Source: a virus. Taken from it: a DNA stretch of 64,000 nt. The stretch covers positions 14,196 through 78,195 of IMG/VR virus record IMGVR_UViG_3300029365_000529. One strand, 5' to 3'. The notes below the pieces were generated by a model, which searched no databases, was not told the origin of the DNA, and worked only from the letters and a program-made list of their open reading frames with translations. Numbering within the stretch: position 1 is the first letter of the stretch; each line of letters opens with the position of its first letter. This document shows positions 4,192 through 49,632 of this stretch, in pieces. A program made the position numbers and the translations under genes.

Positions 4192-4503
4192 CTATACCAA
4201 TCTATCTACATATTTATCTAAATCTTTTTCGTACCAAACCAGCTCGGTCCATCCTTTCCGCTTTTTACCCTTTGGCAGCCTGCCTTCTTTCACAAGGCGG
4301 TCAAAGGTAGCCCTGGAAACATGAACATAGCCGCATGCCTCAGCCTTGCTGATAGGCTCGTCCTTATTAGCGATGCGGTGCAGAAAATCTAACATGAAAG
4401 CATTTTGCTGTTTGTTAGTTAAGCATCTTCCGCTCTGAATCCGCTCATGAAATTCCATCAGGAGCGAATCAATCATCTGCAGTTCTTCGCTAATCTTCGC
4501 CAT
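4192..4503 (-). CDS. helix-turn-helix DNA-binding protein (HTH_17/excisionase-like)
   Basis: ISKAEACGYVHVSRATFDRLVKEGRLPKG matches the MerR/excisionase-type HTH pattern; 103 aa. Confidence 0.5.
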   Translation of the reverse strand: MAKISEELQMIDSLLMEFHERIQSGRCLTNKQQNAFMLDFLHRIANKDEPISKAEACGYVHVSRATFDRLVKEGRLPKGKKRKGWTELVWYEKDLDKYVDRLV

Positions 4504-4506
4504 AAG

Positions 4507-4947
4507 CTAGCACTTTTTGTTTCTGTACCAGAGAGTGAACCCAATCGCGCAAGCCGCCAGTATAAACAGAAAGGCGATATAGCATCTGCCCAGTGACATC
4601 AGCCTTTGTTCGTTCTTCGTCAGTTGTCGCTCTATAGGATAAGGCACGGAGACTGAATCCGTCTTGATGATCGTGTCCGTCTTCACCTTATATATATTAT
4701 GATACCGGTCCCGGTAAACCACCTTGTTATGGAAAACCGTATCACCTTTCTGAAAAACATACACCGAATCCTTCATGTAGATACTATCCAACTTAGCAAA
4801 AGTATCAGTTCTGCATACGTATTCTGTTCTAACAGAAGGAACCTTGATATACTCCTTCGTCTTGCATCCTGTAAATGCCAATAGGATAATTCCAATCACC
4901 AAGCCGATGCAAGCCCATTTCCAAAACCTTATGTCATACCATTTCAT
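4507..4947 (-). CDS. candidate unimolecular spanin (N-terminal lipoprotein signal plus C-terminal transmembrane helix)
   Basis: Lipobox LLAFTGC near the N-terminus and hydrophobic C-terminus CYIAFLFILAACAIGFTLWY. Lies immediately downstream of the endolysin in the same operon. Confidence 0.4.
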   Translation of the reverse strand: MKWYDIRFWKWACIGLVIGIILLAFTGCKTKEYIKVPSVRTEYVCRTDTFAKLDSIYMKDSVYVFQKGDTVFHNKVVYRDRYHNIYKVKTDTIIKTDSVSVPYPIERQLTKNEQRLMSLGRCYIAFLFILAACAIGFTLWYRNKKC

Positions 4948-4950
4948 AAG

Positions 4951-5394
4951 CTATATCTCTTTGTATTCAACTTTAGCGTCAAAGCAAGGGCACTCCTTGA
5001 TTCTCTCCCAAGGATCCACCACGCCGTTATGGTTCCTGTCGGGCGAAATATCCCTATGCCCCAAGATTTCAGCATCCGGATATTTCTTCTTCAGCTGAGT
5101 GAGCAGAGTGATAAGCGATTTCTTCTGCTCCTCAGTTCTATTGTCTACCGCCTTTCCCTTCTTGTTGATACCGCCAACATAAGCCACATTGATAGCTGTA
5201 GCATTATATCCCTTCACGCCGTTGCTAACCATTTCTACCGGCAGCATCTGGTGAATCCCACCATCAGCAGTAATCACGTAATGATACCCTGGATTATTCC
5301 AGCCTTTGCGCTTAAACTCATCCCAAAGTTCCTTCACACACCATTTCTGAGAAGAGGCAGTGCAATGAACAAAAATTCTTTTAATCAGTCTCAT
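4951..5394 (-). CDS. N-acetylmuramoyl-L-alanine amidase endolysin (Amidase_2/PGRP, T7 lysozyme-like)
   Basis: Conserved Amidase_2 residues readable by eye: FVHCTAS, GYHYVI, KGYN, VGG, GHRD, CPCFD. Confidence 0.9.
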   Translation of the reverse strand: MRLIKRIFVHCTASSQKWCVKELWDEFKRKGWNNPGYHYVITADGGIHQMLPVEMVSNGVKGYNATAINVAYVGGINKKGKAVDNRTEEQKKSLITLLTQLKKKYPDAEILGHRDISPDRNHNGVVDPWERIKECPCFDAKVEYKEI

Positions 5395-5834
5395 TTTTTC
5401 TCCTCCTTTCCCTGCTCCTTCATAATCTCAGCAAAAGCCCTAGCCAAGTCTTCTTTATTTTCTAAGAGTATGCTGAAAGAACGTTCCTGCTTCCGTATCT
5501 CAGCCTTCTGCCAGCTTTTCTCCCTTACGCTTACAAATTCACAGAACACGCAATAGCCTGCCCATATCATAGAGAAGACAGGGAAGGGGAGAACCGTACA
5601 GGCTATCAGGTCTATGCAGACCGTCACCATGAAGGGAGAAAAGTATTTCCTCGCCTTGTCGCAAGTCTTCTTGAATCCTGTACTTGTCGTAGCCAGCCCG
5701 TTCTCTTTCGCTTTCTTGATACCGAAGAACAGGTCCACGCCCATAGAAATGATAAGAGCACCCATGCAGATGACAATAACCAATGCCGATCTGTACAGGT
5801 GCTCTTGTAAAAATGTATGTACTATCTCTGCCAT
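5391..5834 (-). CDS. putative holin (three predicted transmembrane helices)
   Basis: 147 aa with three hydrophobic helices and a charged C-terminus. Its stop overlaps the endolysin start in ATGA. Confidence 0.5.
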   Translation of the reverse strand: MAEIVHTFLQEHLYRSALVIVICMGALIISMGVDLFFGIKKAKENGLATTSTGFKKTCDKARKYFSPFMVTVCIDLIACTVLPFPVFSMIWAGYCVFCEFVSVREKSWQKAEIRKQERSFSILLENKEDLARAFAEIMKEQGKEEKK

Positions 5835-5860: not shown

Positions 5861-5903
5861 CAAAGATAAAAGGCTTTTCAATAGCTTTTGCCGTGTTCCA
5901 ACT
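5861..5903 (-). promoter_or_regulatory. late promoter: conserved GGTTGGAACACGGCAAAA motif plus -7 box TATCTTTG upstream of holin
   Basis: Motif at 5887-5903 (minus-strand reading); 17 nt downstream of it is TATCTTTG (TAnnTTTG), about 25 nt before the holin ATG. Confidence 0.5.
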
Positions 5904-6364
5904 TAGCTATTCATATACCACCAGATTTTATCTGTAGGGTGGTTTGTCGATTCGTCACAGAGGAAACTGATAGCCAGTTCCGAAATCCTTTTTCTTGTGG
6001 TATCTTTGTTCTTCGACCATTTGCCCACCACGTCTATATGGTCAGCATACATCTTATTCATCGTTACCGCAAAATCCCAGAAGTTGTAGTCCGGTATGTT
6101 CCAAGATAGCCGGTCATAATCATCCTTCAATTCATCAAACCCGAAGTAAGGAGCATACTTTTTGTGAACATCATCATCAAAATAATAGATGTTGGCGATG
6201 CAGGCTCTGCCCAGTTGCTCGTCAAAGTGATGCTTCCTTTCCATCCAGTAAAGCAGATTTCTCTGCACAATCCTCTCTTCTTCCTCTGTAAACCCGCACT
6301 CATCGTTTCTTAGCATCCCGAAGGCAGATTCTGCTATTCGATAGAGCGATTTTGATAAATCCAT
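5903..6364 (-). CDS. hypothetical protein (153 aa)
   Basis: Six-frame ORF; possible later start; partially overlaps 6300-6632 in another frame. Confidence 0.4.
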   Translation of the reverse strand: MDLSKSLYRIAESAFGMLRNDECGFTEEEERIVQRNLLYWMERKHHFDEQLGRACIANIYYFDDDVHKKYAPYFGFDELKDDYDRLSWNIPDYNFWDFAVTMNKMYADHIDVVGKWSKNKDTTRKRISELAISFLCDESTNHPTDKIWWYMNS

Positions 6365-6987: not shown

Positions 6988-7443
6988 ATGGCAAGAGCAA
7001 ATTACGAATTGATTGACAGACAGAGGGATGATCTGATGAAGGCGTATCGGGAGATAGCTCCTAATTGCCATTCTCAACAGGAGGCTTGGGAAAAGGTGGT
7101 TCATTCTCCTGCCCCCAGATACTATGTTTCTCCCAAAAGAGCTTGGGATATACTCCGCAGAATGGCAGTCGGCGATTTCTCAAAGGTGGATAGCATGAAG
7201 CCGATTCGGCAGAAGTTATACTATACGCTGTTCAATAGGATGAACGAAATGACGCAGCGAAAGGAATTCGTGGGCAAATCTTTATGGTTTATCTGCCAGT
7301 TCCTTGTTTCTGAGCCTGCACCCGAGTTCTTTATCCAGCCAAGTAATCTCAAATTCATTTTCGCTTACTATAAGAAGTATGGAAAAAATTACAGAGAAAT
7401 GGACCTTCGTAAGAAGAAACTTTCGAACAAAGCTGGTGCTTAG
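6988..7443 (+). CDS. hypothetical protein (151 aa)
   Basis: ORF directly downstream of a consensus promoter. Confidence 0.45.
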   Translation: MARANYELIDRQRDDLMKAYREIAPNCHSQQEAWEKVVHSPAPRYYVSPKRAWDILRRMAVGDFSKVDSMKPIRQKLYYTLFNRMNEMTQRKEFVGKSLWFICQFLVSEPAPEFFIQPSNLKFIFAYYKKYGKNYREMDLRKKKLSNKAGA

Positions 7444-7980: not shown

Positions 7981-10638
7981 TTATCTCATTTTGTCTTCTC
8001 GTCTGCTTTGTACCTCTACTATACTTCCAGCAAAGGAATCAGCAGCCTTAAAGTTCTGCAGCGTATACTTGAAAGTAAAGTACTTCCAAGGCTTACCAGC
8101 CAAGCTTGGCAGCTTGCACCAGTGCTTGCAGTCGTTACTTCCGTATATCTCCAGCCCAATCGTACCTTCGTCCGAATCAAACAGATGCTTCACCGCTCTC
8201 AGCGATTTCAACGTCATGCTGCCGCCCAGTTTCAAAGGTCTGGTAGTAAATGACCCGCTATAGCTTTCCGTATCTTCGTTGATGTCTGGCTTTGACGTGA
8301 GTGAATAGACGTTTCCGTTAGTATCTTGTATCAGATTATCCGGATAGTCATTCACTACCGCCTGTGCCTCTATGCCGCTATTCACCATCGAGAAGGTCTT
8401 ATCCACCATATTATATATGTATTGGTATGATTTCCCTTTGCTGAATATTCTCAATATGGAGTCTCTGTAATCGTAGGCGATAAGGCATTCTTTCAGGAAA
8501 TCCAGGAACTTGCCTTCACCGAAGGTTGCAAAGTTTCTCGGCGCTCTTCCCCTCATCTGTTCACTTATGCAGGCTACGCTTCCACCGCTTGCCGCCATCA
8601 GTCCTTTCTTTGAAGCAAAGAACACAAGCCTGTCCGTCGGCACCAGTGGCGAATCCTCATTACATACCTCTCTTGATATTGGATAGGCTCTACTATATAG
8701 TCCTTCTGAGTTAACCGACAAGCCGTAGATACCTTCGTCCGTAAATACCATCAATGGATATTGACCGAACTGACCTTGACTTACCGCCTCCGTGTTGGCA
8801 ATAATTCCGAGTATCTTTCCGGTTCCAACCGTATTATCTCCCGATGCCTCAAATACAAATGGGTTATTGACTACTGAGGTGAAAATCTGAGAGTTCAGAT
8901 CTTCTATTTCATTTTCTATACTAGGTAAGGAAATATTATCTTCCCACCCAATAGTATTATCTGGTAGAGCCATTTTATAAGAACCATTTAATAAAGGGTG
9001 AGGCTGCAACTTACTCTTAATTCCTCTATTATTCTTAACATTATATACAATAACTTCGGTAGCATTTGGGTCAGGGTAGAAAAACCATCCGTTTAGCGTA
9101 CACTTTGGAGCCTTACCTTCTTTAGATTCTACCCAACGTGACATAGAGCCAGATTCGATATGAACATAATATTTATAAGAATCAATATCTTCACCTTTTA
9201 ATGCGCAAAAAGAGCTAAACCCTTCAAACGGACTTCTGTATACTCCGATAGCGTTTAATCTTCCATTGTATGGATACATTTTTTTAAAAACATAATGTGC
9301 CCATCCGTAATAATCATCCTTTTTTAGCTGCTCCTGCGTTTCTAATGTTGATAGAACGCCATCATCTATTTTGAGAGCCGAGCTTATCCCATCTACATCT
9401 TCCGACATCACGTTAAGTTGCGATATTTTATAGAACACAGTATCTTTCTTTAATTCTTCTGCTATTTTATCCTTCTTTTTTAAACTAGGTATGATTCGCA
9501 TACTTGGCTCATCCGTATAACCATCTCTGCTATATTTATGTTCAGTATAATTGTCAGGTCCAACATCATCATTCCATGTCATTCCATAAACCTCATCAAG
9601 GTACCCGAATTTCCAACCTTTTTCTAATTTATAAGGCATTACACCCTTTGTGGCAAAAAAAACGATTTCTTTTACAATATCAACCCAGTCTTCTTTTTGG
9701 GGTATTGATACAGCCGCTGTTAGACTTGATCCATACAAGGTAAAGTAAGCTGTTGTGTTTCCAATATGCGAATGATGGTTTCCTGTAACACATGGGTAAC
9801 AAATCACCGGATTTGAAATCCTGGCATAAGTCCCATCAAAGAGACGTAAGGCATACCTTGCATAAAAAGGAAAGCAGAAAAGATTTTTTTCTTTTGCTTT
9901 ATTTATAATAGATGATACATGACCAACAACAGCATCTTGAAATAAGTTTTCGTTGTTATCATTATCGTTTGTTATAGCATAAGCTTCGTAGTCTTCTTCT
10001 TTGACAGGAGTATTGTCATTTATCGTAACCGTTTGCTCTCCGAAATCACCACTATTCTTTATATATATCAACTTATGTATTTTACATACATTTCCAAAGT
10101 CGTCATAGCTTACTTTAAGTGTTTTGTGATTAACAAAACCTTTATATCTGATAGGTGTATCTGCTTCAATAGGCGTACTTGGTGATAGAGAAAACACCAC
10201 ATTAGGTGTAGGAATCTCTGTACCTAAATCTTTATACTTTCCACCTTTAAATAGCAGATAATGCAAGCCTTCATTTGTTGCAACAGCAAGTGTATTGCCT
10301 ATACTTTTTACGTCATAAACGGTTCCTACATTGAAACTTTTCGTTACTCCATCTGGTGGGCTTACAATATTTCCACTATCATCTTTGGTATACCAGTATA
10401 TATTCGTCGTACCATCATAGGCAATGATATTCTCATAGTCTGCCATCTTGTGAACGTACATTATCTTATAAGGAACGTTGCCAATACTCACCCCTTTCTG
10501 TACCGCCTTCATTTCTCCATCCTTAAAGATAAATCCGTCACTCTCCAGCAGTTCAGAATCATCTGAAAGCAAGTCGCTAGGCACATTCGTCATGCCCTTG
10601 CTAAAACTCAAAGTTTGTCTTTCTAAGTTTCTTTCCAT
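7981..10638 (-). CDS. large virion-associated protein (885 aa), function unknown, possibly tail or receptor-binding
   Basis: Long ORF immediately downstream of the large terminase; beta-rich composition and no catalytic motif recognised. Confidence 0.55.
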   Translation of the reverse strand: MERNLERQTLSFSKGMTNVPSDLLSDDSELLESDGFIFKDGEMKAVQKGVSIGNVPYKIMYVHKMADYENIIAYDGTTNIYWYTKDDSGNIVSPPDGVTKSFNVGTVYDVKSIGNTLAVATNEGLHYLLFKGGKYKDLGTEIPTPNVVFSLSPSTPIEADTPIRYKGFVNHKTLKVSYDDFGNVCKIHKLIYIKNSGDFGEQTVTINDNTPVKEEDYEAYAITNDNDNNENLFQDAVVGHVSSIINKAKEKNLFCFPFYARYALRLFDGTYARISNPVICYPCVTGNHHSHIGNTTAYFTLYGSSLTAAVSIPQKEDWVDIVKEIVFFATKGVMPYKLEKGWKFGYLDEVYGMTWNDDVGPDNYTEHKYSRDGYTDEPSMRIIPSLKKKDKIAEELKKDTVFYKISQLNVMSEDVDGISSALKIDDGVLSTLETQEQLKKDDYYGWAHYVFKKMYPYNGRLNAIGVYRSPFEGFSSFCALKGEDIDSYKYYVHIESGSMSRWVESKEGKAPKCTLNGWFFYPDPNATEVIVYNVKNNRGIKSKLQPHPLLNGSYKMALPDNTIGWEDNISLPSIENEIEDLNSQIFTSVVNNPFVFEASGDNTVGTGKILGIIANTEAVSQGQFGQYPLMVFTDEGIYGLSVNSEGLYSRAYPISREVCNEDSPLVPTDRLVFFASKKGLMAASGGSVACISEQMRGRAPRNFATFGEGKFLDFLKECLIAYDYRDSILRIFSKGKSYQYIYNMVDKTFSMVNSGIEAQAVVNDYPDNLIQDTNGNVYSLTSKPDINEDTESYSGSFTTRPLKLGGSMTLKSLRAVKHLFDSDEGTIGLEIYGSNDCKHWCKLPSLAGKPWKYFTFKYTLQNFKAADSFAGSIVEVQSRREDKMR

Positions 10639-10662
10639 AATAATTCAACATTTAACATTGAC

Positions 10663-12780
10663 TTAAATTTTCGCCGCCGTATGAACACCATCACCACCAC
10701 GGCTTCTTCTTTCCGCTTTCTTCCAGCTAGGTTTCTCCATGTCCGTAAGACTAACAAAGAGACCGATGCCGGTACTCATTACCACATCATCATGGTTTCC
10801 GTTACCCACGATGTTACCCAAGCTGCCATCATCATGTCGCTCATAGATTCGCAACTCATGATACATTTCCTTGTCTGGCTCCTCATACAGATTATCATCA
10901 ATAAACTCTTCCAAGTTATCAATCACCTGTTGCTTCGTCAGCTTGTTGGTTTGGAAACCATACTTCGCCAGTACGTTGTCTTCCACATTCTCCGAACTGC
11001 TTGTTCTCTGATACAGATTATCGTAGTAATCGGCTATCTCCTGTAGAATAGTCAGAAAGTGATCACCCTCCGTGTTGTTGTTCTTCTCTCGGTCGGCAGT
11101 ATTACTCTCTATCACCAGCAGCGCATCATCATAATAATGAGCTAGGGCAGCAGCCATCCATGCCAGTTTATCATGTCTAACATGTCCTCTGTATCTCGCT
11201 ACCACCTTTGGCTTGCCCTTCACCGTAGGAATCATACCGAATCGGTCTATAACGGTCATAACGGTATAGTCCGATGTCGTACTCTTACCGCCAATATCCA
11301 CGCTCACCAAATATCTGTTCTCCACTTGCAGACAGTTTGGCACAGCCCAAATCTTCAGGTCTCCCTCTCCATCGTCTCTCAGCTTCACCTTCGAGTTCGG
11401 AATGGTGTTATCATCCTTCACGCTGATGTTCACTACGATGTCGGCAGTAAACTTAGGGTCTTGCTTATACAAAGCCTGCATGTCGTCTATAGAATAAGGA
11501 TTGAATACCAGTCTACCAGAGTTTCTGAACGCATCTTCCTCATCAATAGGAGCCTCGGTTGCACATGCTGCATGGGTGGTAAACTTGTTTCTGTAGTTTC
11601 TGTACCATTCTATCGCCTCAAAGCAAGCACCCTTCTGCCACATTCGCCAGAAGAACTTTCCTGTCTCACGATAACCCTTCGGACAGGTACTTCGGTCTCT
11701 GTTCTGCAAAAGCCACTTGGCAAATGCTCTTCTGTTCTCTACAGGAGTCATATCCTTTTCGATGAAGAAACAAGGAATAAAGAGGAACGAATAAGCATCA
11801 TTATTCTTTGGGTCCATTGCCAACTGGCACTTGTCGTAGAAGAAACCAGAGTTACCTCTACCGGTACTTTCGAATATCTCCACGTTGTCTTCCAATGGGT
11901 CGATACCACCGGATATAGAAGAAATCACACCCTCAGGATCATGCTCTGGTGTCTTCTTCCAATAGGCTACCTCCGAATAGTGGGCGCAGTGGAAGTTGCT
12001 ACCACGCACAGAATCGAAGTTCTCGAAGGATGCTACCGTCAGCGTACTTCGTCTGATTGCCTTCACACCATCCGTTACTTGAAAATCGTCGGGAGAATTT
12101 TCGTATGGCGAGAACTGAAGTTTTGCGCCCGGATGCCCCACGGTCCACCCCGGCTGCCGCTCCAAAGCTTTTCGGTACATCGCCTTAATCTTCTTGGCGG
12201 TATTCTTCTGTTGGGCAAGCACAATAGCATTCCAACCATCGCGCCTATAGTCCTGAATCCATTTGATGTAAAGCTGTGATAGGGTAGAGCCGCCCCACTG
12301 ACGTGCTTTCAGAATAACCACAAACACCGGTTTATGGGCATTCCGCAGGTCCTCCATAATCTTCAGTAGCTTTCTTTGAGGATAGTTCAGCTTGAAAGAA
12401 ATCATCTTACCGGTCTTCTTATCCTCAATCTTATCGGTCACGTATAGGGCAAACTCGGGGTCTTCCATGAACCTCACTCTACAGATGGCAAAGGTAAGCA
12501 TTTGGAAATGCTGGGCATCATCCTTCTGGTGCACCACATAGTTGATGTAGTCTTTTAGACTGCCCATCTTTCTCAGACCTCTGAACAGAACAGATTTTGC
12601 AGTCTTCTTCGGAACCCACATCTTAGGAATGAAGAAATCGGATAGTTCTATCAGCACACGATGCTCAAAGTTATAGCATCCTTCGCCCGTCATAGGGTCG
12701 TAGGTGCCATAAATCTCATCGTATCGCTTCTGGTTTTCCGCTACGAGATTTTCTATTTCCTGTTCAGTTACTAGAGCCAT
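10663..12780 (-). CDS. terminase large subunit
   Basis: Walker A of the terminase type VVILKARQWGGST (KxRQxGxS/T); C-terminal nuclease-like LVSVDIGG...HDD; 705 aa. Confidence 0.85.
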   Translation of the reverse strand: MALVTEQEIENLVAENQKRYDEIYGTYDPMTGEGCYNFEHRVLIELSDFFIPKMWVPKKTAKSVLFRGLRKMGSLKDYINYVVHQKDDAQHFQMLTFAICRVRFMEDPEFALYVTDKIEDKKTGKMISFKLNYPQRKLLKIMEDLRNAHKPVFVVILKARQWGGSTLSQLYIKWIQDYRRDGWNAIVLAQQKNTAKKIKAMYRKALERQPGWTVGHPGAKLQFSPYENSPDDFQVTDGVKAIRRSTLTVASFENFDSVRGSNFHCAHYSEVAYWKKTPEHDPEGVISSISGGIDPLEDNVEIFESTGRGNSGFFYDKCQLAMDPKNNDAYSFLFIPCFFIEKDMTPVENRRAFAKWLLQNRDRSTCPKGYRETGKFFWRMWQKGACFEAIEWYRNYRNKFTTHAACATEAPIDEEDAFRNSGRLVFNPYSIDDMQALYKQDPKFTADIVVNISVKDDNTIPNSKVKLRDDGEGDLKIWAVPNCLQVENRYLVSVDIGGKSTTSDYTVMTVIDRFGMIPTVKGKPKVVARYRGHVRHDKLAWMAAALAHYYDDALLVIESNTADREKNNNTEGDHFLTILQEIADYYDNLYQRTSSSENVEDNVLAKYGFQTNKLTKQQVIDNLEEFIDDNLYEEPDKEMYHELRIYERHDDGSLGNIVGNGNHDDVVMSTGIGLFVSLTDMEKPSWKKAERRSRGGDGVHTAAKI

Positions 12781-13177
12781 CCGTCAAATCGTTTAGTTCC
12801 TCAAAATCTGCATCCTGTATCTCGGGTGCTTTGCTTATATCCAGCACGTCTGCCTCGTCTTCGTCTTCTACGGTTGTCATACCGAGTGCCATGAGCTGCT
12901 TGAAGTCTGCATCTATTCCGTGGGTAACGCTTACTTCTGTCTGCTTTGGTATCATGTGCTTGGTAAGGTCTTTGTAGATGGTGACGTATGTCTTAGGATC
13001 ACACTCTGCCAGTTGGTTCATACAATCCTCAAACTGCTCTTGGCTCCTTGCCAGCCAGTCTCTAATATATTCCTTTTGGGCACTCTTTCTTGCAGGGAGA
13101 AGTTTCTTCACCTTCTCCTTCTTCTCTTTCTGTATCTCCCTTACAGACTTAAATCCATCCATTTCAAAATCTTCCAT
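12764..13177 (-). CDS. possible terminase small subunit (137 aa)
   Basis: Position only: directly upstream of and overlapping the large terminase start. Charged, with an acidic tail. Confidence 0.3.
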   Translation of the reverse strand: MEDFEMDGFKSVREIQKEKKEKVKKLLPARKSAQKEYIRDWLARSQEQFEDCMNQLAECDPKTYVTIYKDLTKHMIPKQTEVSVTHGIDADFKQLMALGMTTVEDEDEADVLDISKAPEIQDADFEELNDLTDGSSN

Positions 13178-13192
13178 ACGCTCGCTTTTTTA

Positions 13193-13801
13193 TTATCCGA
13201 AGGGTTTCAGAGTATGAATCATGCTGCCCGGCTTGGTTGAGTTGGCGCAGTCTATGATGTCTATCTCCAGTTCGTCCAGTTGGTTCATCTGGTCTATCGT
13301 CAGAGGGTCCTTGCTCGTCAATGTGCGCATAAAGTATTCGTATAGCGCACCGGTCACGATATAGTCGTGTATCAGCTTGACGAGTGCATCATATTTGGTA
13401 TCATCCCAGTAGTCTGGAAATTTCAGCCATATCTCCTTCTCATCCCATTCTCTCAGGGCATTATCTCTAACCCTTCCTTCCGGTTTCATTACATAGGCTG
13501 ACAGATTCGCTTCCACCTTATTAATATACTTGTCAAACCATCGGTAGAAGAGTGGACGTTCCTGATCGTTCTCGCTTGTCGGAATGTCTTCACCTTGCGC
13601 ATCCTTCATGTTCCGTCTTGCTCGTCCTACCATGTTGGTGTTTGAATCTATGTCATACCAGAGCTGAGTGGCATAGATAAAGATGTGTTTATCCCAATAG
13701 CCGTGCCCTGCTCTTCGTGGCTTCGGCAAGAAAGGATTTGGCTCGGGCTTCCATCCTCTCTCTCGGATAAAATGTGTCGGGTGTAATTTATTAAACTCCA
13801 T
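13193..13801 (-). CDS. hypothetical structural-module protein (202 aa)
   Basis: ORF in the portal-terminase operon. Confidence 0.5.
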   Translation of the reverse strand: MEFNKLHPTHFIRERGWKPEPNPFLPKPRRAGHGYWDKHIFIYATQLWYDIDSNTNMVGRARRNMKDAQGEDIPTSENDQERPLFYRWFDKYINKVEANLSAYVMKPEGRVRDNALREWDEKEIWLKFPDYWDDTKYDALVKLIHDYIVTGALYEYFMRTLTSKDPLTIDQMNQLDELEIDIIDCANSTKPGSMIHTLKPFG

Positions 13802-13802
13802 C

Positions 13803-14594
13803 TTATACCTCCTTTGCTACGGTTGCTTCTACTTCCACTTCCAGTTTATCGCTGTGTCTGGAGAATAGAGTGATGGTTGCTACACCTGTATTGATAGGCT
13901 TCAGCCAGAAAGCATGTGGCTCCTGACTTCTGTGTACTTCCAGTATACTAGGGTCACTGCTTCTTGCCTCAATATCATCAATGGTTCCATCGTCAATAGA
14001 GTAGGATAGGGTAACTTCCATATCGTCAATACGTATGGTTACTGCTCCGTCCTCTTCGCTTCCGTCCACCTTGGCGGTCAGATGTTGGGTGTATGGAATA
14101 GTAGGAACTGCCGGACCACTCAGAACGAAACATCTGCGAATATTCTGTTCGTCAAATGTCAATGACTGCAAGTAAGGTTCAGCCTGTTTAAGGTTGGTAG
14201 TTTTTAACCACCACTGGTATATCATATAGTCCTCTACATACTTTGCTACCAATCTTGCCAGAGTGTCAGAGAGTGTTCCGTTGCATCTGCGTGATACGAC
14301 AATAACAAACTCTACTATATCATCATCCTTGTCATTGTAGTATATAACGTTATCGCCTGATGTCTGAGCGTTTGGAGCCAGATAGTCCGCAAGTATAACC
14401 TTTGTTATCTCCAATGCTGATTGAAAATCGTGCGTCAACGTATTTTCGTGCACAGCCTCGTCGCCAGCTGCTTCATTAAAACTCATCTTGATGGCTCTAT
14501 CATCTGTAGCACCATCTATCTTAGCCTTTAGGTAGGTTGCCCTCTTAACCTCGTCAACTACTACCGATTTGATAATTTGAAATTTTAATATCAT
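13803..14594 (-). CDS. protein with C-terminal Ig-like (Big_2-type) domain, possible capsid decoration protein
   Basis: C-terminal SSDPSILEVHRSQ...INTGVATITLFSRHSDKLEVEVEATV resembles the Big_2 consensus. Confidence 0.45.
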   Translation of the reverse strand: MILKFQIIKSVVVDEVKRATYLKAKIDGATDDRAIKMSFNEAAGDEAVHENTLTHDFQSALEITKVILADYLAPNAQTSGDNVIYYNDKDDDIVEFVIVVSRRCNGTLSDTLARLVAKYVEDYMIYQWWLKTTNLKQAEPYLQSLTFDEQNIRRCFVLSGPAVPTIPYTQHLTAKVDGSEEDGAVTIRIDDMEVTLSYSIDDGTIDDIEARSSDPSILEVHRSQEPHAFWLKPINTGVATITLFSRHSDKLEVEVEATVAKEV

Positions 14595-14602
14595 ATCTTT
14601 CC

Positions 14603-15118
14603 TTATTTAATAGTTTCTAACTGTGGGTCACTCTCCATGGATCCTGTCATATCTTTCAGTGTTTTATCTCCAGCCGAAGGAGCCTCTTTGTTAAATACCA
14701 GTTTTATTGCAGATTTCAAAAGCATATCTGCTTCATCCGAATAAACTTTTGCTTGCTCTGTACTGCTCAAAGTTAGCACCATGTAGGCTGTGTACGCCCT
14801 TACATATCCCATAAAGCAACTTTCGAAAGCATCCTTGTGACCTTCGTTCAGTCGAGTCACATTGAAAGTTACTGATGCGGGAAGTGAAGAGTCCAAATAG
14901 CTTTTTACTACTGGTGCCATTTCGCCAGCAAAACTACGAACCGCTGATTCGATGTATTGCCTTATCACTATTTTCTCTACAGATGATAGGGTCGTGCTTC
15001 CAAAAAGAGAAACACCATCCTTGTCTTTCAGTCTCTTTGCGATAACTGAAACCTGCTTCGTCACATCACTTTCGATGGACTCCATGCTGATTGTTATTAA
15101 TTTCGTTTCTTCTGCCAT
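14603..15118 (-). CDS. hypothetical structural-module protein (171 aa)
   Basis: ORF immediately downstream of the portal gene. Confidence 0.5.
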   Translation of the reverse strand: MAEETKLITISMESIESDVTKQVSVIAKRLKDKDGVSLFGSTTLSSVEKIVIRQYIESAVRSFAGEMAPVVKSYLDSSLPASVTFNVTRLNEGHKDAFESCFMGYVRAYTAYMVLTLSSTEQAKVYSDEADMLLKSAIKLVFNKEAPSAGDKTLKDMTGSMESDPQLETIK

Positions 15119-15121
15119 ACC

Positions 15122-17155
15122 TTATGCTGCTCTGTTATATCCTAATACACTCTGTGCCTGTGCTACCGCATTCTGGTCTGCACCCTGCACAATTCCGTTT
15201 TCTACCTGACCGCCACCTTGCTGCTGAGCCATTGCCTGTTGCTGCTGATACATCTGTTCGAGCTGAGCCTGCTGCTCCTGTACGCTGGCAAGCAACTTGT
15301 CTGCAAATGGTGCGTTGAGGTTCTGCAGATACTGGATGATGTTGATACCGCCCATTTCAAGAAGCTTGTCAAGCGTATCGTTCTGCATCGTGTTGAAGGC
15401 TGCTGTAGCTGCTGCATTCTTGATGCTGATCTTGAAGTGAATATCTCTTGCCGAAAGGCGGTCGTACTTGTAAACCGTATTGAAATTCCGGTCGTAAACC
15501 CTTCTTCCGTCTTCGTAGTACTGCTGTATAGTCATGCACTTCTTGGTTGCCAGCTTCTCCGTAAACACGTCCATGTCGGCAAGGATGGTATACAGAGATG
15601 TGGTTGCATTCTGGCTTTCCTGTGCATATCTGGCTGCCGAAGTTCCTGCCGATGGGGTCTTACCCTGCAAAGCTCCGCTCACGTTGGTAACCTCTCGAAT
15701 CAGGTTCAGCTCTATCTGCAAGAGTTCATTCGTACCAATGTTCACGGCATTCGATGTAATAATTTCTGGCTTTGCATTCGGTGTCTTTACCGATGGCTTG
15801 TAGAATATCCATCCGTCATACTCTACCGCCTCTTCCATAAACAGCTCCGGTGTTCTGCCGTTAAGCACATTTGTAGGAATCATCTTGAATCCCTTGAAAC
15901 TGCTTCTGATGGCCATGTCGTTCATAACAATCAGTCGGTTGATGTATCGCTGCTGGTCTATGATATTGGCAAGGAATGGATGAATCTCTCCGTTGATATA
16001 CGGATAGAGCTTCATCGTGAAAGGATGGCTCTTATAATCGTATGGTGTTTCGCCCTGACAGAGGATAGTTCCGTCTGGCGCCATGTAGGTATAATACCAG
16101 TACTTATCTGCAATCTCTTCGCTAGTGATGTACGCTCTGTCTTCTTCCGCTATACCCATTTCGTCATACTGCTGCTTGCGCTTCATATTGTCGTTGCGCA
16201 GCTTCTGTATCATCGCAGTATCATCCAAATCTATGCGGAAGTAAGCACCGGTTCCTGTGGTCGCAATCGGGTCAAAGCATTGCAGTCTTGGCTTGGTTTC
16301 CGTGGTCCACACCTCAATCACTCTAGAGTAATGTCTTCCCTTGTTGGTATGGTCAAAACTGAGATTCTCCAACGCCTTCTCTTCGTTAAACTCATAGCCG
16401 TAGCTGTTATCGTCCGAAGGATAAATATCAAAGATGGCGTTCAGATCTTCTTCTGTAAGCCCATATTCCTGTTTGGCAAACTTCTGATACAAGTCTTCTC
16501 GGCTCACGTCATGCAGAACACCGATAAGACTCACGTCATTGTGTCGTGGGTCGCTGCCGCATTCAAAAAACATGTGGTCGGGTTCCATCGCATCTGTCCA
16601 TGAGTCGGTCATTTCAAGTTCCTTCGCCTCCCAACTCTCTCTGACAAACATCTGACCGCCCATAAGATAGTCCTTAATAGCGTGGTTCAGCACATCTTGC
16701 ATGTACGTTGTCTGCCAGTTGCATTGCATCGTGGCACTCATCATGTCGCTCAGTTGTCGGGAGTCGCTGTCTCTTGCAAAGCAGACTGGTTCCGTTCCCT
16801 GCTTGGCATAAAGACCGGCAATAGATTCCAGTATGCTCACCATGATATTGTTGCTCATAGGTGTCTGGTTGCGCTTCTCCATATAGGTGCGCTCCGTCAT
16901 TTCCTCCCAGTAACCATGATGGTACACTCTGATGGTGTCGCTCCATTGGTCGCCCATACAGTAGCGCATCGTTCTCGCCCTCGTTTCTCGCACACCGCTC
17001 AGGTTATTCCAAGCATTTCTGCATCGGCTGAGTAACTCCTCGTCCTTGCCGTGTTCTTGTCTTCGCTTGCGAGCCTTAACCGAGTCATACTTGTTATGTT
17101 GAGGCATCACTTTGCTAAGTGTCAGTATTCTTGCCTTTACCATTTTTTTATACAT
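15122..17155 (-). CDS. putative portal protein
   Basis: 677 aa, first gene of the operon containing the terminase; Q-rich flexible C-terminus. Assignment rests on size and context rather than a unique motif. Confidence 0.55.
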   Translation of the reverse strand: MYKKMVKARILTLSKVMPQHNKYDSVKARKRRQEHGKDEELLSRCRNAWNNLSGVRETRARTMRYCMGDQWSDTIRVYHHGYWEEMTERTYMEKRNQTPMSNNIMVSILESIAGLYAKQGTEPVCFARDSDSRQLSDMMSATMQCNWQTTYMQDVLNHAIKDYLMGGQMFVRESWEAKELEMTDSWTDAMEPDHMFFECGSDPRHNDVSLIGVLHDVSREDLYQKFAKQEYGLTEEDLNAIFDIYPSDDNSYGYEFNEEKALENLSFDHTNKGRHYSRVIEVWTTETKPRLQCFDPIATTGTGAYFRIDLDDTAMIQKLRNDNMKRKQQYDEMGIAEEDRAYITSEEIADKYWYYTYMAPDGTILCQGETPYDYKSHPFTMKLYPYINGEIHPFLANIIDQQRYINRLIVMNDMAIRSSFKGFKMIPTNVLNGRTPELFMEEAVEYDGWIFYKPSVKTPNAKPEIITSNAVNIGTNELLQIELNLIREVTNVSGALQGKTPSAGTSAARYAQESQNATTSLYTILADMDVFTEKLATKKCMTIQQYYEDGRRVYDRNFNTVYKYDRLSARDIHFKISIKNAAATAAFNTMQNDTLDKLLEMGGINIIQYLQNLNAPFADKLLASVQEQQAQLEQMYQQQQAMAQQQGGGQVENGIVQGADQNAVAQAQSVLGYNRAA

Positions 17156-17170: not shown

Positions 17171-17247
17171 CAAAAATAGGCAAAAACATGGCTTTCTTTG
17201 CCGTGTTCCAACCAACCATCAGGCGCAAGGTTGGAGCACGGCAAAAC
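17171..17247. promoter_or_regulatory. divergent late promoter region with inverted copies of the conserved late motif
   Basis: TTTGCCGTGTTCCAACC at 17197-17213 and its inverted partner GGTTGGAGCACGGCAAAAC at 17229-17247 (one mismatch) form a hairpin-capable inverted repeat. Each copy faces one of the divergent operons; a -7 box TATTTTTG (minus-strand reading) lies at 17171-17178. Confidence 0.5.
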
Positions 17248-17298
17248 TTCTTCAATTTATTTGCATTTTTGCCGAAAAGTTTCAAACAGTATAGAGAT

Positions 17299-18087
17299 AT
17301 GACAAAAGAAGAATTAGCACAGATGAATGAGGAAGGTGGCACACAACAGGCTCCACCTGCTGAGGCTACTGCAGATGAAACGCCTGTAGATGAGCGCCCT
17401 AATCGTACAGCTTTCTCCAAGCGTTTCTCCAATCGTCACTCCGACATCGACTTCGAAGACAAGGAAGCTCGTTATGCGGCAATGAATGATGATGCTGATT
17501 TGCTCGGGCAGTACGAACAGAGCGGTAAGGCATTGTCTAAAGTATTCGATAAGCACAAGTGGCTCGCTGCTCTGGCGATGGATATGGAGAAGAATTCTGA
17601 CGACAATCCTTTTGATGCGATGGCTCGCTTGGGTATTGATGTAAAGACGTTGATTGATGATCCTGAAGGCGGCAAGAAACTCGCTGAGATTCTCGCCAAG
17701 CATAACAAGGACGTGGCTGAACAGAACGAGGCTGCCGAGAAGGTTAATGCCAATATGCGCAAGTCGCTTGAACGCCTGATGGAGCTCTATCCCGATGATG
17801 CGCAGGATATGTGGTCCCAGATTTACGAGATTCACGACAAGGTAGAGAGTGGCGATATTTCAGATGATATTTGGAAGATGCTCCACAATGCCAACAACTA
17901 TGATTCCGACATCACTTCGGCGCGCGACGAGGCTGCTATGCAAGCCCGCAACGAAAAGATTCAGAATAAGGTTCGCTCTTCTAGCACGGAAGGCATTCCT
18001 CCTTCTCTTTCTAGTTCGGGTGCAGGAAACAAACCGGCAAAGAAACAGAAACGTGAAAGTTTCTTTGATGATATTAGAAGTAATTAA
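17299..18087 (+). CDS. putative scaffolding protein
   Basis: Internal Met (MTKEELAQMNEEGG) of track ORF 17119-18087; acidic and helical, directly precedes the putative capsid gene. Confidence 0.4.
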   Translation: MTKEELAQMNEEGGTQQAPPAEATADETPVDERPNRTAFSKRFSNRHSDIDFEDKEARYAAMNDDADLLGQYEQSGKALSKVFDKHKWLAALAMDMEKNSDDNPFDAMARLGIDVKTLIDDPEGGKKLAEILAKHNKDVAEQNEAAEKVNANMRKSLERLMELYPDDAQDMWSQIYEIHDKVESGDISDDIWKMLHNANNYDSDITSARDEAAMQARNEKIQNKVRSSSTEGIPPSLSSSGAGNKPAKKQKRESFFDDIRSN

Positions 18088-18098
18088 TCCATAAATAT

Positions 18099-19808
18099 AT
18101 GTATAAAATGAAGAAAAATTGTTTTAAGAATTTTATGAGCGGTCAGTTCATCATGAAGATGATTCTGATGCTTGTTGCCGTAGTTACAGGTGGTGGTATA
18201 ATGGCTGTAGCAGACCTTGTGGAGCCACAAATTGGTGACGAGGGTGTAAATCCTGCAAGTAAAGAGACTGTTGCCACAAAAGAGCCGGTAGCCCCTAATG
18301 CTAACGACAGGCTTAGCCCTGGTGGAAAAAAAGACGGTCAAGACCTTACAGGCTCTCAGGCTTCTAGTACACAGCTTCGTGAGGGTGGTCTGCTTGACAA
18401 GGAGTGGGATAGTGAGATTGTTAAGTTCTATCCTTTCAAGACACCGCTTCTTTCTATTGTTCGTCGTATGGCAAAAACAGTAAATATTAAGAACTGGTCA
18501 ATCTCGCATCAGCGTGTTGGTGGCGAAACTCTTGATGGACAGACTATTCAGAAAATTGAAACTGCTGACACCATCGAGATTAATTCAACGAACTTCTCTG
18601 GTTCTATTCGCCCATTCTATAAAGGCACTACTGTTTTTGCTTCTGGTGTTCCCGGTTATGCTGCTGGCTCACAGACCAAGACAGAGGGTACACTGATGCT
18701 TTATGTAATTGAGGCTAACGGTAAAAAAGCGGTTATGCAGGCTGTCAACGGAAAGCCGAAGGTTAGTGGAGACTCAAGAGACAATCTTGACAACATGACT
18801 TGCCCGGAAATCCCTGTTGGAACAACGTTCCTTGCTGGTGCATCTGCAGCTTCTGAGTCTCAGCTCACCATTACACCAGAAAACTTCCAGCCACGCGAGA
18901 AAGAAGTGTATGTTCAGAAGAAACTCTTGAACATCGTATTTACAGATGACTACGAGAAGGTAAAGAAGGAGCAGCCTATTACAGTTGCCGACTTAAAGAC
19001 CGATGCTATCATCAAGTATAACCTACGTGCAGAGCGTACTTATTTGCTTGGATGCAAGTCTCGCTTCAAGGCAGAGACCGGCGACGGACAGATTGAAGAT
19101 GTCTATACCTCTGAGGGTATCATCAATCAGCTCACCAACACATACTCCATCGGTGATACTTATACGCTTGGCGATTTGATTGCTATTTCCAAACTCCAGT
19201 TCACGGAATTCTCCGAGAATGATCGTTGTTTTGCCTTCTGTGGTAAGAATGCTATCGAACGTTTGGAGAATATCAAGTTGGAGGGAAGCCATCAGAACGA
19301 CTTCATTAATCACAACGAGTTCGACCTTACCTTCAAGCGATTCAAGGACACCTTTGGCTCTATTGATTTTGTTTGGACTCAGACTCTCGATCTCTTGGGT
19401 ATGTCAGACTTTATGGTTATCTTCGACCCTAAGGCTTCTCGCCGATACGTCAAGATTGGCAAGAAGGAGCAGACCAATGATATGTCTAAGGGAGGTGGCG
19501 AGGTTCGTGACGCTAAGCGTTGGATTCATCAGGAGGCAGATAGTGTGGCACTTCGTGGTTACAACTCAATCTTGGTTGGTCCTGCTGATAAGATTGCTAA
19601 GATTGCCACAGAGTCACTTAATGCCATCATTTCTGCTAAGGAACTTCCTAAGAATCCATCAAAGGGTATGAAGGTTGCGCTCACGCAAGACTACACCTTA
19701 AAGGGTGCTAATTCTCCTACTGATGATGTCAAGTATGAGGCAGGTACAGTTTTATACTACACTGGCACCGCTTGGGCTATCTATGCTGGTCAAGATACAG
19801 CGCAGTAA
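18099..19808 (+). CDS. putative major capsid protein
   Basis: 569 aa ORF after the scaffold-like gene and followed by the strongest terminator in the window. The true start may be an internal Met. Confidence 0.5.
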   Translation: MYKMKKNCFKNFMSGQFIMKMILMLVAVVTGGGIMAVADLVEPQIGDEGVNPASKETVATKEPVAPNANDRLSPGGKKDGQDLTGSQASSTQLREGGLLDKEWDSEIVKFYPFKTPLLSIVRRMAKTVNIKNWSISHQRVGGETLDGQTIQKIETADTIEINSTNFSGSIRPFYKGTTVFASGVPGYAAGSQTKTEGTLMLYVIEANGKKAVMQAVNGKPKVSGDSRDNLDNMTCPEIPVGTTFLAGASAASESQLTITPENFQPREKEVYVQKKLLNIVFTDDYEKVKKEQPITVADLKTDAIIKYNLRAERTYLLGCKSRFKAETGDGQIEDVYTSEGIINQLTNTYSIGDTYTLGDLIAISKLQFTEFSENDRCFAFCGKNAIERLENIKLEGSHQNDFINHNEFDLTFKRFKDTFGSIDFVWTQTLDLLGMSDFMVIFDPKASRRYVKIGKKEQTNDMSKGGGEVRDAKRWIHQEADSVALRGYNSILVGPADKIAKIATESLNAIISAKELPKNPSKGMKVALTQDYTLKGANSPTDDVKYEAGTVLYYTGTAWAIYAGQDTAQ

Positions 19809-19828
19809 ATTATCACTATAAACCATCG

Positions 19829-19866
19829 GTGGGCAGGTGCATCTTGCTCTGCCCACCATTTATAAA
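19829..19866 (+). terminator. rho-independent terminator after the capsid gene
   Basis: Perfect 9-bp stem GGTGGGCAG/CTGCCCACC with 12-nt loop, followed by ATTTATAAAG. Confidence 0.7.
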
Positions 19867-19874
19867 GAATAAAT

Positions 19875-20336
19875 ATGATTAAGACATATAAAGCACGAGT
19901 AAATCAAAATAGCATTAGCTATCTGCTTTCAGGTAAGCAGGGTAATCAGGTTCGCTATCCTTTCGCAAATGGTAATGTAATTATAAACAAATATCCTTCA
20001 CTTACGCTGCGAAACCGATACTGTCAGGAACTTCTAGAGTCTAGCTTGCTTTTTGCCAACAATACTATTGTTCTCGACCATGAGGAAGAGGAGTACCCTG
20101 GTGAAAAGGCTAAACTCGAAGAAGAAAAGAATGCCGCATTAAAGTCTACCGTAGATGAGCCGGCAAAGAAGACTACAAAAAAGTCACAGAAAGAGGAGGT
20201 AGCAGGCATCCGTACAGCGGAAGAAGTTATTAATTACATAAACAACCGTTTTGACAAGGATTGCAGGACTCTTGAAACTGCTATGAAGCATGCAGACAAG
20301 GCTGGTCTTATTTTCCCTGATTACGGCAAGGAGTAA
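19875..20336 (+). CDS. hypothetical structural protein (153 aa)
   Basis: ORF in the capsid-tail operon. Confidence 0.5.
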   Translation: MIKTYKARVNQNSISYLLSGKQGNQVRYPFANGNVIINKYPSLTLRNRYCQELLESSLLFANNTIVLDHEEEEYPGEKAKLEEEKNAALKSTVDEPAKKTTKKSQKEEVAGIRTAEEVINYINNRFDKDCRTLETAMKHADKAGLIFPDYGKE

Positions 20337-20354
20337 TATATATAATAAGGTGAA

Positions 20355-21011
20355 ATGAAGGTAGAAGACATCATAAAGGCAGTTCGTTGGTGCATAGACG
20401 AGGAATCCAACAACTTCTCATCAATCACAGATGAGAAGGACGATTTGTATATGGACAACATCATCAAGGCAAAAATAAACGATGCCCTGCATTGGATTGC
20501 CGTTACCGCATCATCCTCTGCTGCATTGGCTGATTCCAAGAAGATAGGTACTTCTTCTGCCACCCTCCAAGTGCAAGACTACGATACCCTGAGAAGCATC
20601 GGAGTAGTCACGATGGATGCCAATACCGAGGTGATCAATATCTCTCGCATTCGTGGTAATGGCTGGTTTAAGGCAGTTGTGCCTATAGAGGATACCGAGG
20701 ATGAGGCTGTTATGATGTTTGATGATACGGCAAAGGGAACCATCGATCGACCACAGGCGGCTATCATGCGTGAGAATCCTCTGAAAATCCTCTTGCAGCC
20801 CAAGCCTACGGAAGCGGTCATTTCCTATGTAGGTGTTCCGGAGAACGTAAGCACGACCGATTCTACAGATGTAGCTATCCCAGGCCGCTTGAAGAATGCC
20901 TTCATCTACTATCTCGCCTTCTTATTGCTTTCAGCCTACGATGATACCAAGGCTACGCAAATGTACACGATAGCCTTGCAGCAGCTAGGCGTTAGTCAAA
21001 CATCAAAATAA
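20355..21011 (+). CDS. hypothetical structural protein (218 aa), possible head-tail joining
   Basis: ORF between the capsid and tail fibre genes. Confidence 0.45.
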   Translation: MKVEDIIKAVRWCIDEESNNFSSITDEKDDLYMDNIIKAKINDALHWIAVTASSSAALADSKKIGTSSATLQVQDYDTLRSIGVVTMDANTEVINISRIRGNGWFKAVVPIEDTEDEAVMMFDDTAKGTIDRPQAAIMRENPLKILLQPKPTEAVISYVGVPENVSTTDSTDVAIPGRLKNAFIYYLAFLLLSAYDDTKATQMYTIALQQLGVSQTSK

Positions 21012-21018
21012 TGAAATC

Positions 21019-21297
21019 ATGGAGTATGTATCTACGAATTATAGCGAAGAAGAACTGGCATGGGTCTCCCCGGAGATAACCTTGCAGCGTGACATCTACT
21101 TGATGATTAAGCTAAAGCGCCCAGGGAAACTGGTAATCAGACAGGATAGGGGCGATGGCAAGAAGCCTCGGGTTCCCATTCGTGCCCACAAGAACACCTG
21201 CGAGTTCAAGCTTCGCCTTCGGGTGATTCCTGAAACCATAAAGATTCAGATATTCACTTCATCAGAACCAAAAGAAATCAAATATGCCTACATTTAG
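21019..21297 (+). CDS. hypothetical protein (92 aa)
   Basis: Small basic ORF; its end overlaps the tail fibre start. Confidence 0.4.
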   Translation: MEYVSTNYSEEELAWVSPEITLQRDIYLMIKLKRPGKLVIRQDRGDGKKPRVPIRAHKNTCEFKLRLRVIPETIKIQIFTSSEPKEIKYAYI

Positions 21298-24349: not shown

Positions 24350-24351
24350 TT

Positions 24352-25290: not shown

Positions 25291-25305
25291 TAATATTTCT
25301 AGGAT

Positions 25306-25509
25306 ATGGAATTGAGAAAATTAACAAAACCATTCAAGGTAGTTCACGAAGGCAAGAACATTATTCTTCCTTTGACAGAGCAGGGTGACAATGCCGAGGT
25401 ATACCCATCGGCGAATGCCACCGCAGTAGAGTTTGACACATACACAGAAGCAAAGGATTACGTAGATGAGCATAACTTGGTGTATGAGGAGCCAAAGTAT
25501 GGGGAGTAA
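25306..25509 (+). CDS. small hypothetical protein (67 aa)
   Basis: Last ORF of the + operon before the convergent terminator. Confidence 0.4.
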   Translation: MELRKLTKPFKVVHEGKNIILPLTEQGDNAEVYPSANATAVEFDTYTEAKDYVDEHNLVYEEPKYGE

Positions 25510-29810: not shown

Positions 29811-29850
29811 GAAAGGAGTGAGCCTTGCGCCCACTCCTTTATTTATTTAT
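29811..29850. terminator. bidirectional terminator shared by the lipoprotein operon and the giant gene
   Basis: Stem GGAGTGAGC/GCCCACTCC (one mismatch) with loop CTTGC, A-run upstream and TTTATTTATTTAT downstream. Confidence 0.6.
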
Positions 29851-49629: not shown

Positions 49630-49632
49630 AAT

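Follow-up and report, generated by a model that had tools for sequence, protein, structure and literature searches.

A 64,000-nucleotide stretch of viral DNA (IMG/VR record IMGVR_UViG_3300029365_000529, positions 14,196 to 78,195), called the window here, contains a sequence element that stands in front of four operons whose gene content suggests late expression. The four sites lie at a fixed spacing from a -7 promoter box and lack the -33 motif, and the element bears the marks of selection, changes in concert at all four sites between phage lineages and co-segregates with a two-gene module beside the lysis promoter. That this is a real cis-regulatory element is strongly supported, and we consider it probable that it is a late-promoter element replacing the -33 motif and read by a co-evolving phage factor, for which we have candidates only, with the -7 box being read by host sigma A. 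To our knowledge nothing is known about how the late genes of gut Bacteroidota phages are switched on, and we know of no described mechanism of middle or late transcription in crAss-like phages. Our literature search found no paper describing such an element, and searches on TAnnTTTG in phages, on DUF7841 and on crAss sigma factors returned nothing relevant.

The original prediction, made from the sequence letters of the window, proposed a 19-nt motif shared by the upstream regions of four late operons, and this has been borne out. With up to three mismatches allowed, the 19-mer has four matches in the 64 kb, at 5885-5903 (-), 17195-17213 (-), 17229-17247 (+) and 51201-51219 (-), and none in 100 dinucleotide shuffles. 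The copies were said to differ by one mismatch at most, which is not the case (2, 2, 1 and 0 mismatches to the 19-mer); what is invariant is a 15-nt core, TTGGARCACGGCAAA, which is exact in all four copies and occurs four times in the window with no occurrence expected by chance. Relaxing the core to three mismatches adds a single match (at 23268, with three mismatches, inside the tail-fibre gene), which is within chance, as three are expected. All four copies are intergenic, lie on the coding strand and are oriented toward the gene, and there is no copy inside coding sequence in the window. An equal frequency within coding regions had been named in advance as evidence against the motif, and it was not seen.

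Each copy is followed by a box at the same distance. Copy 1 (AGTTGGAACACGGCAAAAG, 5885..5903, minus strand, core running from 5901 to 5887) lies upstream of a holin-like gene with its ATG at 5834, begins within the stop codon of the DUF7841 gene discussed below, and has its -7 box, TATCTTTG, at 5861..5868 (-). Copy 2 (GGTTGGAACACGGCAAAGA, 17195..17213, minus strand, core from 17211 to 17197) belongs to the portal operon promoter, with the box TATTTTTG at 17171..17178 (-). Divergent from it, copy 3 (GGTTGGAGCACGGCAAAAC, 17229..17247, plus strand, core 17231-17245) serves the scaffold/capsid operon promoter, where a -7-like box, CATTTTTG, occupies 17264..17271 (+). Copy 4 (GGTTGGAACACGGCAAAAC, 51201..51219, minus strand, core from 51217 to 51203) is found in the promoter of an operon encoding an internal protein and a polyvalent protein, with the box TATATTTG at 51177..51184 (-) and the ATG at 51149. 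At each of the four sites exactly 18 nt separate core and box, or 16 nt counted from the end of the 19-mer, so that the predicted fixed gap stands and its value, given as 17-18 nt, becomes a single number. A box had been recognised at three of the sites, and TATCTTTG, TATTTTTG and TATATTTG do match TAnnTTTG exactly; the fourth, CATTTTTG at the scaffold promoter, was overlooked and has one deviation, a C at position 1 that is kept in every lineage examined. The position upstream of the start codon on the coding strand was also correct, with the proposed 40-55 nt measuring 39-51 nt from the end of the 19-mer to the first ATG, which is at 5834 for the holin, at 17299 for the scaffold, at 51149 for the internal protein and at 17155 or, more probably, 17143 for the portal. 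Copies 2 and 3, with 15 nt between them, make up an inverted repeat, copies 1 and 4 each stand alone, and the element itself is asymmetric, its self-complementarity being limited to TTG...CAA at the ends.

The combination of element and box is specific to these sites. The relaxed pattern CAAA-N18-[TC]AnnTTTG matches only these four places in the window, and when all TAnnTTTG occurrences were listed and the upstream regions of all 111 boxes were clustered blindly in register, the four late sites came out as the top cluster. Bacteroidota sigma-A promoters carry TAnnTTTG about 5-8 nt upstream of the start and TTTG about 19-21 nt upstream of that -7 box. Compared with this canonical form the four promoters have a like -7 box, and the -33 TTTG is replaced by the element at all four: no TTTG occurs 19-21 nt upstream of any of the four boxes, and GCAA, GGCA or CGGC is found there instead. 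The -33 TTTG is present at five other promoters of the window (6957, 52533, 52639, 63079 and 63168), ahead of small early-looking genes, which agrees with the earlier suggestion that the motif takes the place of the -33 sequence. The late -7 boxes are indistinguishable from those of the window's other, host-type promoters.

The evolutionary record of the element is the second line of evidence. In 149 promoter sequences from close relatives picked by protein identity alone, 25 of 27 columns of the upstream flank and 12 of 18 spacer columns are variable, as opposed to 4 of 15 in the element and 1 of 8 in the box. Because so few columns vary there and so many in the flank and spacer, we take selection to act on the element and box and not on the intervening and flanking DNA. 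Relatives with portals 81-89% identical keep the divergent portal/scaffold layout, with two inverted copies each 18 nt from its box, and in them the element differs by lineage with both copies altered alike. When the lysis and internal-protein promoters of the same genomes were tabulated by contig, all available copies in a genome proved to be of one version, and this held in each of 11 more distant genomes. The motif search across related phages that had been proposed therefore shows all four copies varying together by lineage, with the 18-nt spacing and the layout constant across the IMG/VR relatives, of which there are about 190, and the box fixed as well. Apart from the element, the four promoter regions have no sequence in common, and the same change at four unlinked sites argues for co-evolution with one trans-acting reader.

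Four versions were defined: class A, TTGGARCACGGCAAA; class B, (A/C)CGGAAACACGG(C/A)AA; class C, TTGGAAYACCGCAAA; and class D, TGGAAACACGG(C/A)A(A/G)A. Further lineages have other co-varying portal/scaffold pairs, including ATCGTGGTATCGACAAA, ATCGTGYTATGGGYAAA and GTTAAATAACMGAA. The proximal half of the site, approximately (G/C)(G/C)CAAA, changes little between lineages and the distal half is lineage-variable (TTGGAAC, CGGAAAC, CGTGGTAT, GTTAAATA and others), so that the element looks bipartite, with a conserved proximal and a variable distal part. The class B site can be read as a tandem repeat, CACGGAAA CACGGCAAA, with a half-site period of about 8 bp. Two relatives, L191 of class B and L199 of class C, have different elements and portals that are 95.5% identical. 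The versions are thus uncoupled from the genes controlled and track instead the module beside the lysis promoter.

That module is where the specificity determinant most likely resides, to judge from sequence comparison. It consists of two divergent genes: one for a DUF7841 protein (5903..6364, -), which is acidic, 153 amino acids (aa) long and encoded by a gene whose stop codon abuts the lysis-promoter element, and p151 (6988..7443, +), which encodes a basic protein of 151 aa with two predicted helix-turn-helix (HTH)-like repeats, its structure being predicted at high confidence (pLDDT 91). The latter is transcribed divergently about 600 nt from the former, from a canonical TTTG-N19-TATATTTG promoter with its box at 6957-6964. 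The sequence types of both proteins follow the element versions. They partition cleanly by class, with a within-class identity of at least 0.93 and between-class identities of at most 0.88 for DUF7841 and 0.75 for p151, and they are the only proteins compared that also mirror the similarity of the versions, A being close to C and B close to D. The spanin and a rhomboid protein partition by class as well, but their relatedness pattern differs from that of the element versions, and the holin, portal, capsid, scaffold, internal protein, Cro-like HTH and excisionase-type HTH are not partitioned by class. Two of these had been considered as readers and were rejected. The excisionase-type protein (4192-4503) has an identical recognition helix in classes A, B and C and diverges more within a class (0.75) than between classes (0.91-0.92), and the Cro/CI-like protein (52156-52455) likewise fails to partition. 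Since DUF7841 and p151 are neighbours, co-segregation cannot separate one from the other, and the two may act together.

Pfam, PHROGs and NCBIfam scans of nearly all open reading frames (ORFs), namely about 85 in the window and 10 in a roughly 10-kb off-window region taken from a close relative, with a few structural ORFs scanned against PHROGs only, found no member of the sigma-70 family, no RNA polymerase, MotA, AsiA, Ogr or Q, and no evident Mor/C protein. Neither DUF7841 nor p151 has a sequence-level link to a solved structure or Pfam family. The window encodes a second DUF7841 paralog of 137 aa (25924..26337, -), whose homolog in the crAss-like phage cr130_1 is annotated in RefSeq as 'RNA polymerase sigma factor', and a BFVD neighbour of DUF7841 is labelled 'sigma factor/ubiquitin-like'. 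In Parabacteroides phage PD691P6, a DUF7841 homolog lies directly upstream of the holin and endolysin genes, and p151 is the only small non-structural protein of our phage with a homolog in the Bacteroides phage BS-TP4. DUF7841 proteins occur widely among gut Bacteroidota phages, the crAss-like ones included (see also entry L487, 16416-17054). Directly after p151 comes a gene for a rhomboid-like membrane protease (7379-7861, +), and the p151-rhomboid pair is conserved beside the large terminase gene in BS-TP4 (gp9-gp8) and BF1-TP2 (gp58-gp59).

The explanation we favor in view of these observations is a class of late promoters specific to the phage, of which the element would be the upstream half. 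The host-type -7 box would be read by the sigma-A RNA polymerase of the Bacteroidota host; host sigma A is the simplest reader, as the late boxes are indistinguishable from host-type ones. In place of the -33 TTTG there would be an asymmetric site of 15-19 bp ending exactly 18 nt from the box, at roughly -49 to -31 if transcription starts at the usual distance from the box. The element covers, and extends upstream of, the place of the region 4/-33 contact, in rigid phase with the box. A phage-encoded sequence-specific protein, presumably made earlier in infection from ordinary host-type promoters, would bind this site and recruit or retarget RNA polymerase, such that the lysis, packaging, head/tail and internal-protein operons are turned on together. 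We infer the transcription starts, the timing, the binding protein and the direction of the effect (activation rather than repression). This account agrees with the original proposal of a phage-specific activator or alternative-sigma element coordinating lysis, head, tail and ejection genes, which the gene content downstream of the sites fits; its phage-specific part gains further backing from element polymorphism far below that of the flanks and from the lack of a host regulon described below.

Several points weigh against this explanation or against the factors proposed for it. The assignment of the four operons to a late class is a judgment from gene content, and the four element classes compared for co-segregation are not independent events. 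Homologs of p151 always adjoin the large terminase gene, and p151 may be a small terminase instead, in which case its co-segregation could reflect mere linkage to DUF7841; the small terminase might also be the product of a 137-aa gene that overlaps the beginning of the large one. DUF7841 is acidic and has no evident DNA-binding domain. Its predicted fold resembles sigma region 2, but the match is modest and phage head-tail adaptor proteins match about as well, and searches against Sigma70_r2 and Sigma70_r4 gave no Pfam or PDB sequence match even at E = 10. In BS-TP4 a p151 homolog is present and DUF7841 was not detected. Finally, the part of the genome outside the window, about 10.8 kb that in a close relative proves to be a recombination/replication region, encodes in that relative a Rha/KilAC regulator and several proteins of no assigned role, which are possible alternative factors.

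The alternative that survives best, and one we nevertheless hold to be unlikely, is that a phage sigma-like factor replaces sigma A on the host core polymerase, with the element serving as its -35-like and the TAnnTTTG box as its -10-like determinant. This factor would be DUF7841, in the form of one or both paralogs and perhaps with a DNA-binding partner such as p151. The database annotations of its relatives as sigma factors would fit, as would the tracking of element versions by DUF7841 sequence types, the ending of its gene exactly at the lysis-promoter element (with the PD691P6 homolog placed likewise just ahead of holin and endolysin genes) and the 18-nt gap, which is the usual distance between -35 and -10. 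A sigma factor with a region 2 of its own would, however, be expected to have a box of its own, yet the late -7 boxes are the same as host-type ones, and the 15-19 conserved bases far exceed the contacts made by region 4. In DUF7841 itself an evident region-4-like HTH and any sequence similarity to sigma families are both missing, the fold match is shared with adaptor proteins as noted above, and BS-TP4 shows an analogous promoter architecture despite the lack of a detected DUF7841. A related and similarly doubtful possibility is that DUF7841 is a minimal sigma-like or sigma-appropriating protein that, together with the tandem-HTH protein p151, makes up a two-part, fast-evolving module retargeting Bacteroidota RNA polymerase to bipartite late promoters.

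We think it quite improbable that the element is an operator at which a phage repressor, bound at the -33 position, shuts the morphogenesis and lysis promoters in a prophage or early in infection and later leaves. Co-variation of the copies and co-segregation with the module would fit any sequence-specific phage DNA-binding protein, some phages of the family are temperate (BS-TP4, for one, encodes both integrase and repressor), and one relative is joined to bacterial genes. Promoters that lack a -33 motif should be weak on their own, though, and need help rather than silencing. Operators, moreover, usually cover the -10 or the start site and are dyad-symmetric, whereas this element is asymmetric, always faces the gene and lies upstream of, and abuts, the polymerase contact zone in rigid phase, which is the geometry of activators that replace the -35.

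It is less probable still that a Prevotella or Bacteroides protein, either a regulator or an extracytoplasmic function (ECF) sigma factor, binds the element and that the phage has borrowed a host regulon signal. ECF promoters have a GGAAC-type -35, a 16-17 nt spacer and a conserved CGTC-like -10, and GGAAC does occur in the class A and class C elements. It is wholly missing in the other lineages, nothing resembling a conserved -10 follows 16-17 nt after it, and the box lies 26 nt downstream; an ECF promoter was rejected on these features. A host factor is also unlikely because the versions differ between phages with about 95% identical structural proteins, as in the L191 and L199 portals, and because a scan of 185,579 species genomes found no host regulon carrying element and box. 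In that scan element and box were found in contigs of this phage, binned to Segatella copri or Prevotella, and in five unrelated isolated matches besides, close to the chance expectation. One unrelated Prevotella contig could be read in favor of a host signal. In L475 (from the metagenome-assembled genome contig JAJWLX010000018.1 of a Prevotella sp., 6843-6883), TATTTTTG follows 18 nt after a perfect class A element, ahead of an ORF of 73 aa and amid sequence that bears no resemblance to this phage. This match is either chance, with about 1-2 such matches expected in the collection, or another element using the same factor.

We give next to no credence to a non-transcriptional role as a packaging, replication or recombination site or as an RNA or terminator structure: copies 2 and 3 do form an inverted repeat and p151 could be a DNA-recognising small terminase, but with copies 1 and 4 single a hairpin is not general, all copies face a gene and keep a constant 18 nt to their -7 box, none has a T-run, the whole window has no Rfam match at the gathering score, and four dispersed, oriented sites at operon heads are unlike packaging sites or origins.

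The late-promoter explanation, with a phage factor at the element and sigma A at the box, also accommodates what the four promoters control, which together amounts to about 40 kb out of the roughly 75.5 kb of the genome. The lysis operon (4192..5834, -) encodes the holin-like protein (5391-5834, -), a membrane protein of 147 aa with 2-3 transmembrane or hydrophobic segments, an amidase (4951-5394, -), a spanin-like lipoprotein (4507-4947, -) and the excisionase-type HTH protein of 103 aa (4192-4503, -), and it is closed by a strong hairpin terminator at 4092-4126. The second operon (7981..17155, -) comprises the portal gene (15122-17155, -), genes for four small proteins, the large terminase gene (10663-12780, -) and a gene for an 885-aa structural protein. 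The third (17299..25509, +) runs in the opposite direction through genes for a scaffold-like protein (17299-18087, +), a capsid-like protein (18099-19808, +), small proteins, a tail fibre of 1021 aa and a 312-aa protein. The fourth (29847..51149, -) begins with a 255-aa protein that has a weak T7 gp14 match, continues with several small to medium proteins of no recognised family and ends with a polyvalent protein of 5767 aa in a single ORF (29847-47150, -) with ddrB-ParB, methyltransferase, SNF2/Strawberry-notch helicase and LPD38 domains; gp3 of BS-TP4 (5391 aa) is 40% identical to it over 1705 residues.

No near-identical DNA is present among GenBank phages, and the closest cultured relatives have portals of 31-35% identity. 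The cultured temperate Bacteroides phages BS-TP4, BKO1-TP3 and BF1-TP2 have the portal, terminase, capsid, giant protein and a few other proteins in common with our phage, at 25-40% identity. IMG/VR holds about 190 related genomes, of which the complete ones are near 75 kb, and the metagenomic binning of the phage contigs suggests a Segatella/Prevotella host. In the distant relative BS-TP4 the portal, scaffold and lysis promoters have an analogous motif in common, GTAAAWAGWTAAACAT, situated about 20 nt ahead of their -7 boxes. The comparison was extended to other phages that bear DUF7841. In Bacteroides phage C3_41T2LP there is a two-promoter hint only, TTTTTCGATAA at 27-28 nt from the boxes of the divergent capsid and terminase promoters; PD691P6 has no such motif upstream of its lysis genes, and BF1-TP2 no obvious shared motif in the stretches read. 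Three canonical -33/-7 promoters of C3_41T2LP (entries L469/L470; 62011, 68855 and 71625, +) have a common palindromic spacer, TTGGAACTTTCCAA, that looks like an operator and by coincidence opens with TTGGAAC, a sequence also present in the class A element.

Other features of the window deserve mention in their own right. The host-type promoters at 52577, 52639 and 63168 (+), in early-looking regions, have AAATATAGT/AAATATCGT in common about 50 nt upstream of the box, which may mark a second class of promoter or else an operator bound by the Cro/CI-like protein encoded at 52156-52455. The 1148 nt from 62412 to 63559 have no ORF of at least 45 aa and no Rfam match, and are flanked by divergent canonical promoters at 63079 (-) and 63168 (+). 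At the end of the window (63560-64000), many IMG/VR contigs (L362-L368) end precisely where the last gene begins. In one relative (L374, 1-6463) the adjoining DNA has genes for a Kup potassium transporter and for a polysaccharide synthase of PgaB/C-like type. Either this is the junction of a prophage or the assembly is chimeric; the window showed no integrase. The opposite end (1-4100) is highly mosaic, in that relatives with 99% identical portals (L386-L389) have only short blocks in common with it, and a repeat block, ctataattcttttaatatttttaCATTTTTG on the minus strand, recurs at two gene junctions (1933-1956 and 2770-2793).

The attraction of the system lies in a precisely defined cis element with rigid geometry that comes with a two-gene candidate module. 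The natural specificity variants, classes A to D and more, are ready-made swap experiments, and BS-TP4, a cultured relative on Bacteroides salyersiae, has an analogous architecture. Engineering of Bacteroides or Prevotella could draw on the element for a set of orthogonal, phage-inducible promoters. If DUF7841 does retarget polymerase, the result would extend to the crAss-like phages and could explain how these and other gut Bacteroidota phages with DUF7841 take over the host polymerase.

Several kinds of promoter were considered and set aside. A sigma-54 promoter (TGGCAC-N5-TTGC) does not fit, as TGGAAC is followed here by ACGGC and then AAA, not TTGC. Lambda Q-type antitermination acts at a single promoter as opposed to the four found here, the element lies upstream of -33 rather than between -35 and -10, and Q had no Pfam match. 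A T7-like polymerase promoter, in which the conserved block runs through the start site, is contradicted by the lack of an RNA polymerase domain in the window and the close relative's off-window region, and by a conserved block that stops about 30 nt short of the expected start, with a host-type -7 box after it. If DUF7841 is a small, divergent sigma-region-2-like protein, then its pairing with a partner would be comparable to T4 gp55/gp33 and Bacillus subtilis SigO-RsoA; T4 late promoters, though, have a special -10 only, without an upstream element, unlike those described here.

The closer parallels are with activators that work beside the host sigma factor. At T4 middle promoters (MotA/AsiA, 'sigma appropriation'), a host -10-type element is kept and the -35 gives way to an asymmetric, phage-specific box whose distance is constant. 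A phage protein recognises this box with the host sigma still on the polymerase, and many promoters are switched together, which is the logic we propose here. The MotA box is 9 bp, as against 15-19 bp extending further upstream here, those promoters are of the middle class and ours probably late, the promoter grammar here is the Bacteroidota -33/-7, and no MotA or AsiA Pfam match was found among the ORFs scanned. Phage Mu likewise has four late promoters (Plys, PI, PP and Pmom) for lysis, head, tail and one more operon. They lack a -35 and have the site of the activator C at about -30 to -55 (Mor acts at the middle promoter), and the gene for the activator is found directly ahead of the lysis operon, a place taken here by the gene for DUF7841. 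C and Mor bind as dimers to dyad-symmetric sites, however, whereas our element is asymmetric or tandem. In that respect it resembles the pho boxes of PhoB and the class II sites of MarA/SoxS, in which an asymmetric or tandem site abuts or replaces the -35 in strict phase with the -10, its reader being either a monomer with two HTH units or winged helices arranged head to tail; the tandem CACGGAAA CACGGCAAA of class B may be compared with these. Those proteins serve host regulons, our element has half-sites with a period of about 8 bp, and no PhoB or AraC family domain was found. The element therefore shares the logic of T4 MotA/AsiA, Mu C and the PhoB/MarA class II systems and on the features tested is a member of none of them: it is a familiar kind of phage late-promoter control, met in a group of phages for which such control had not been described before.
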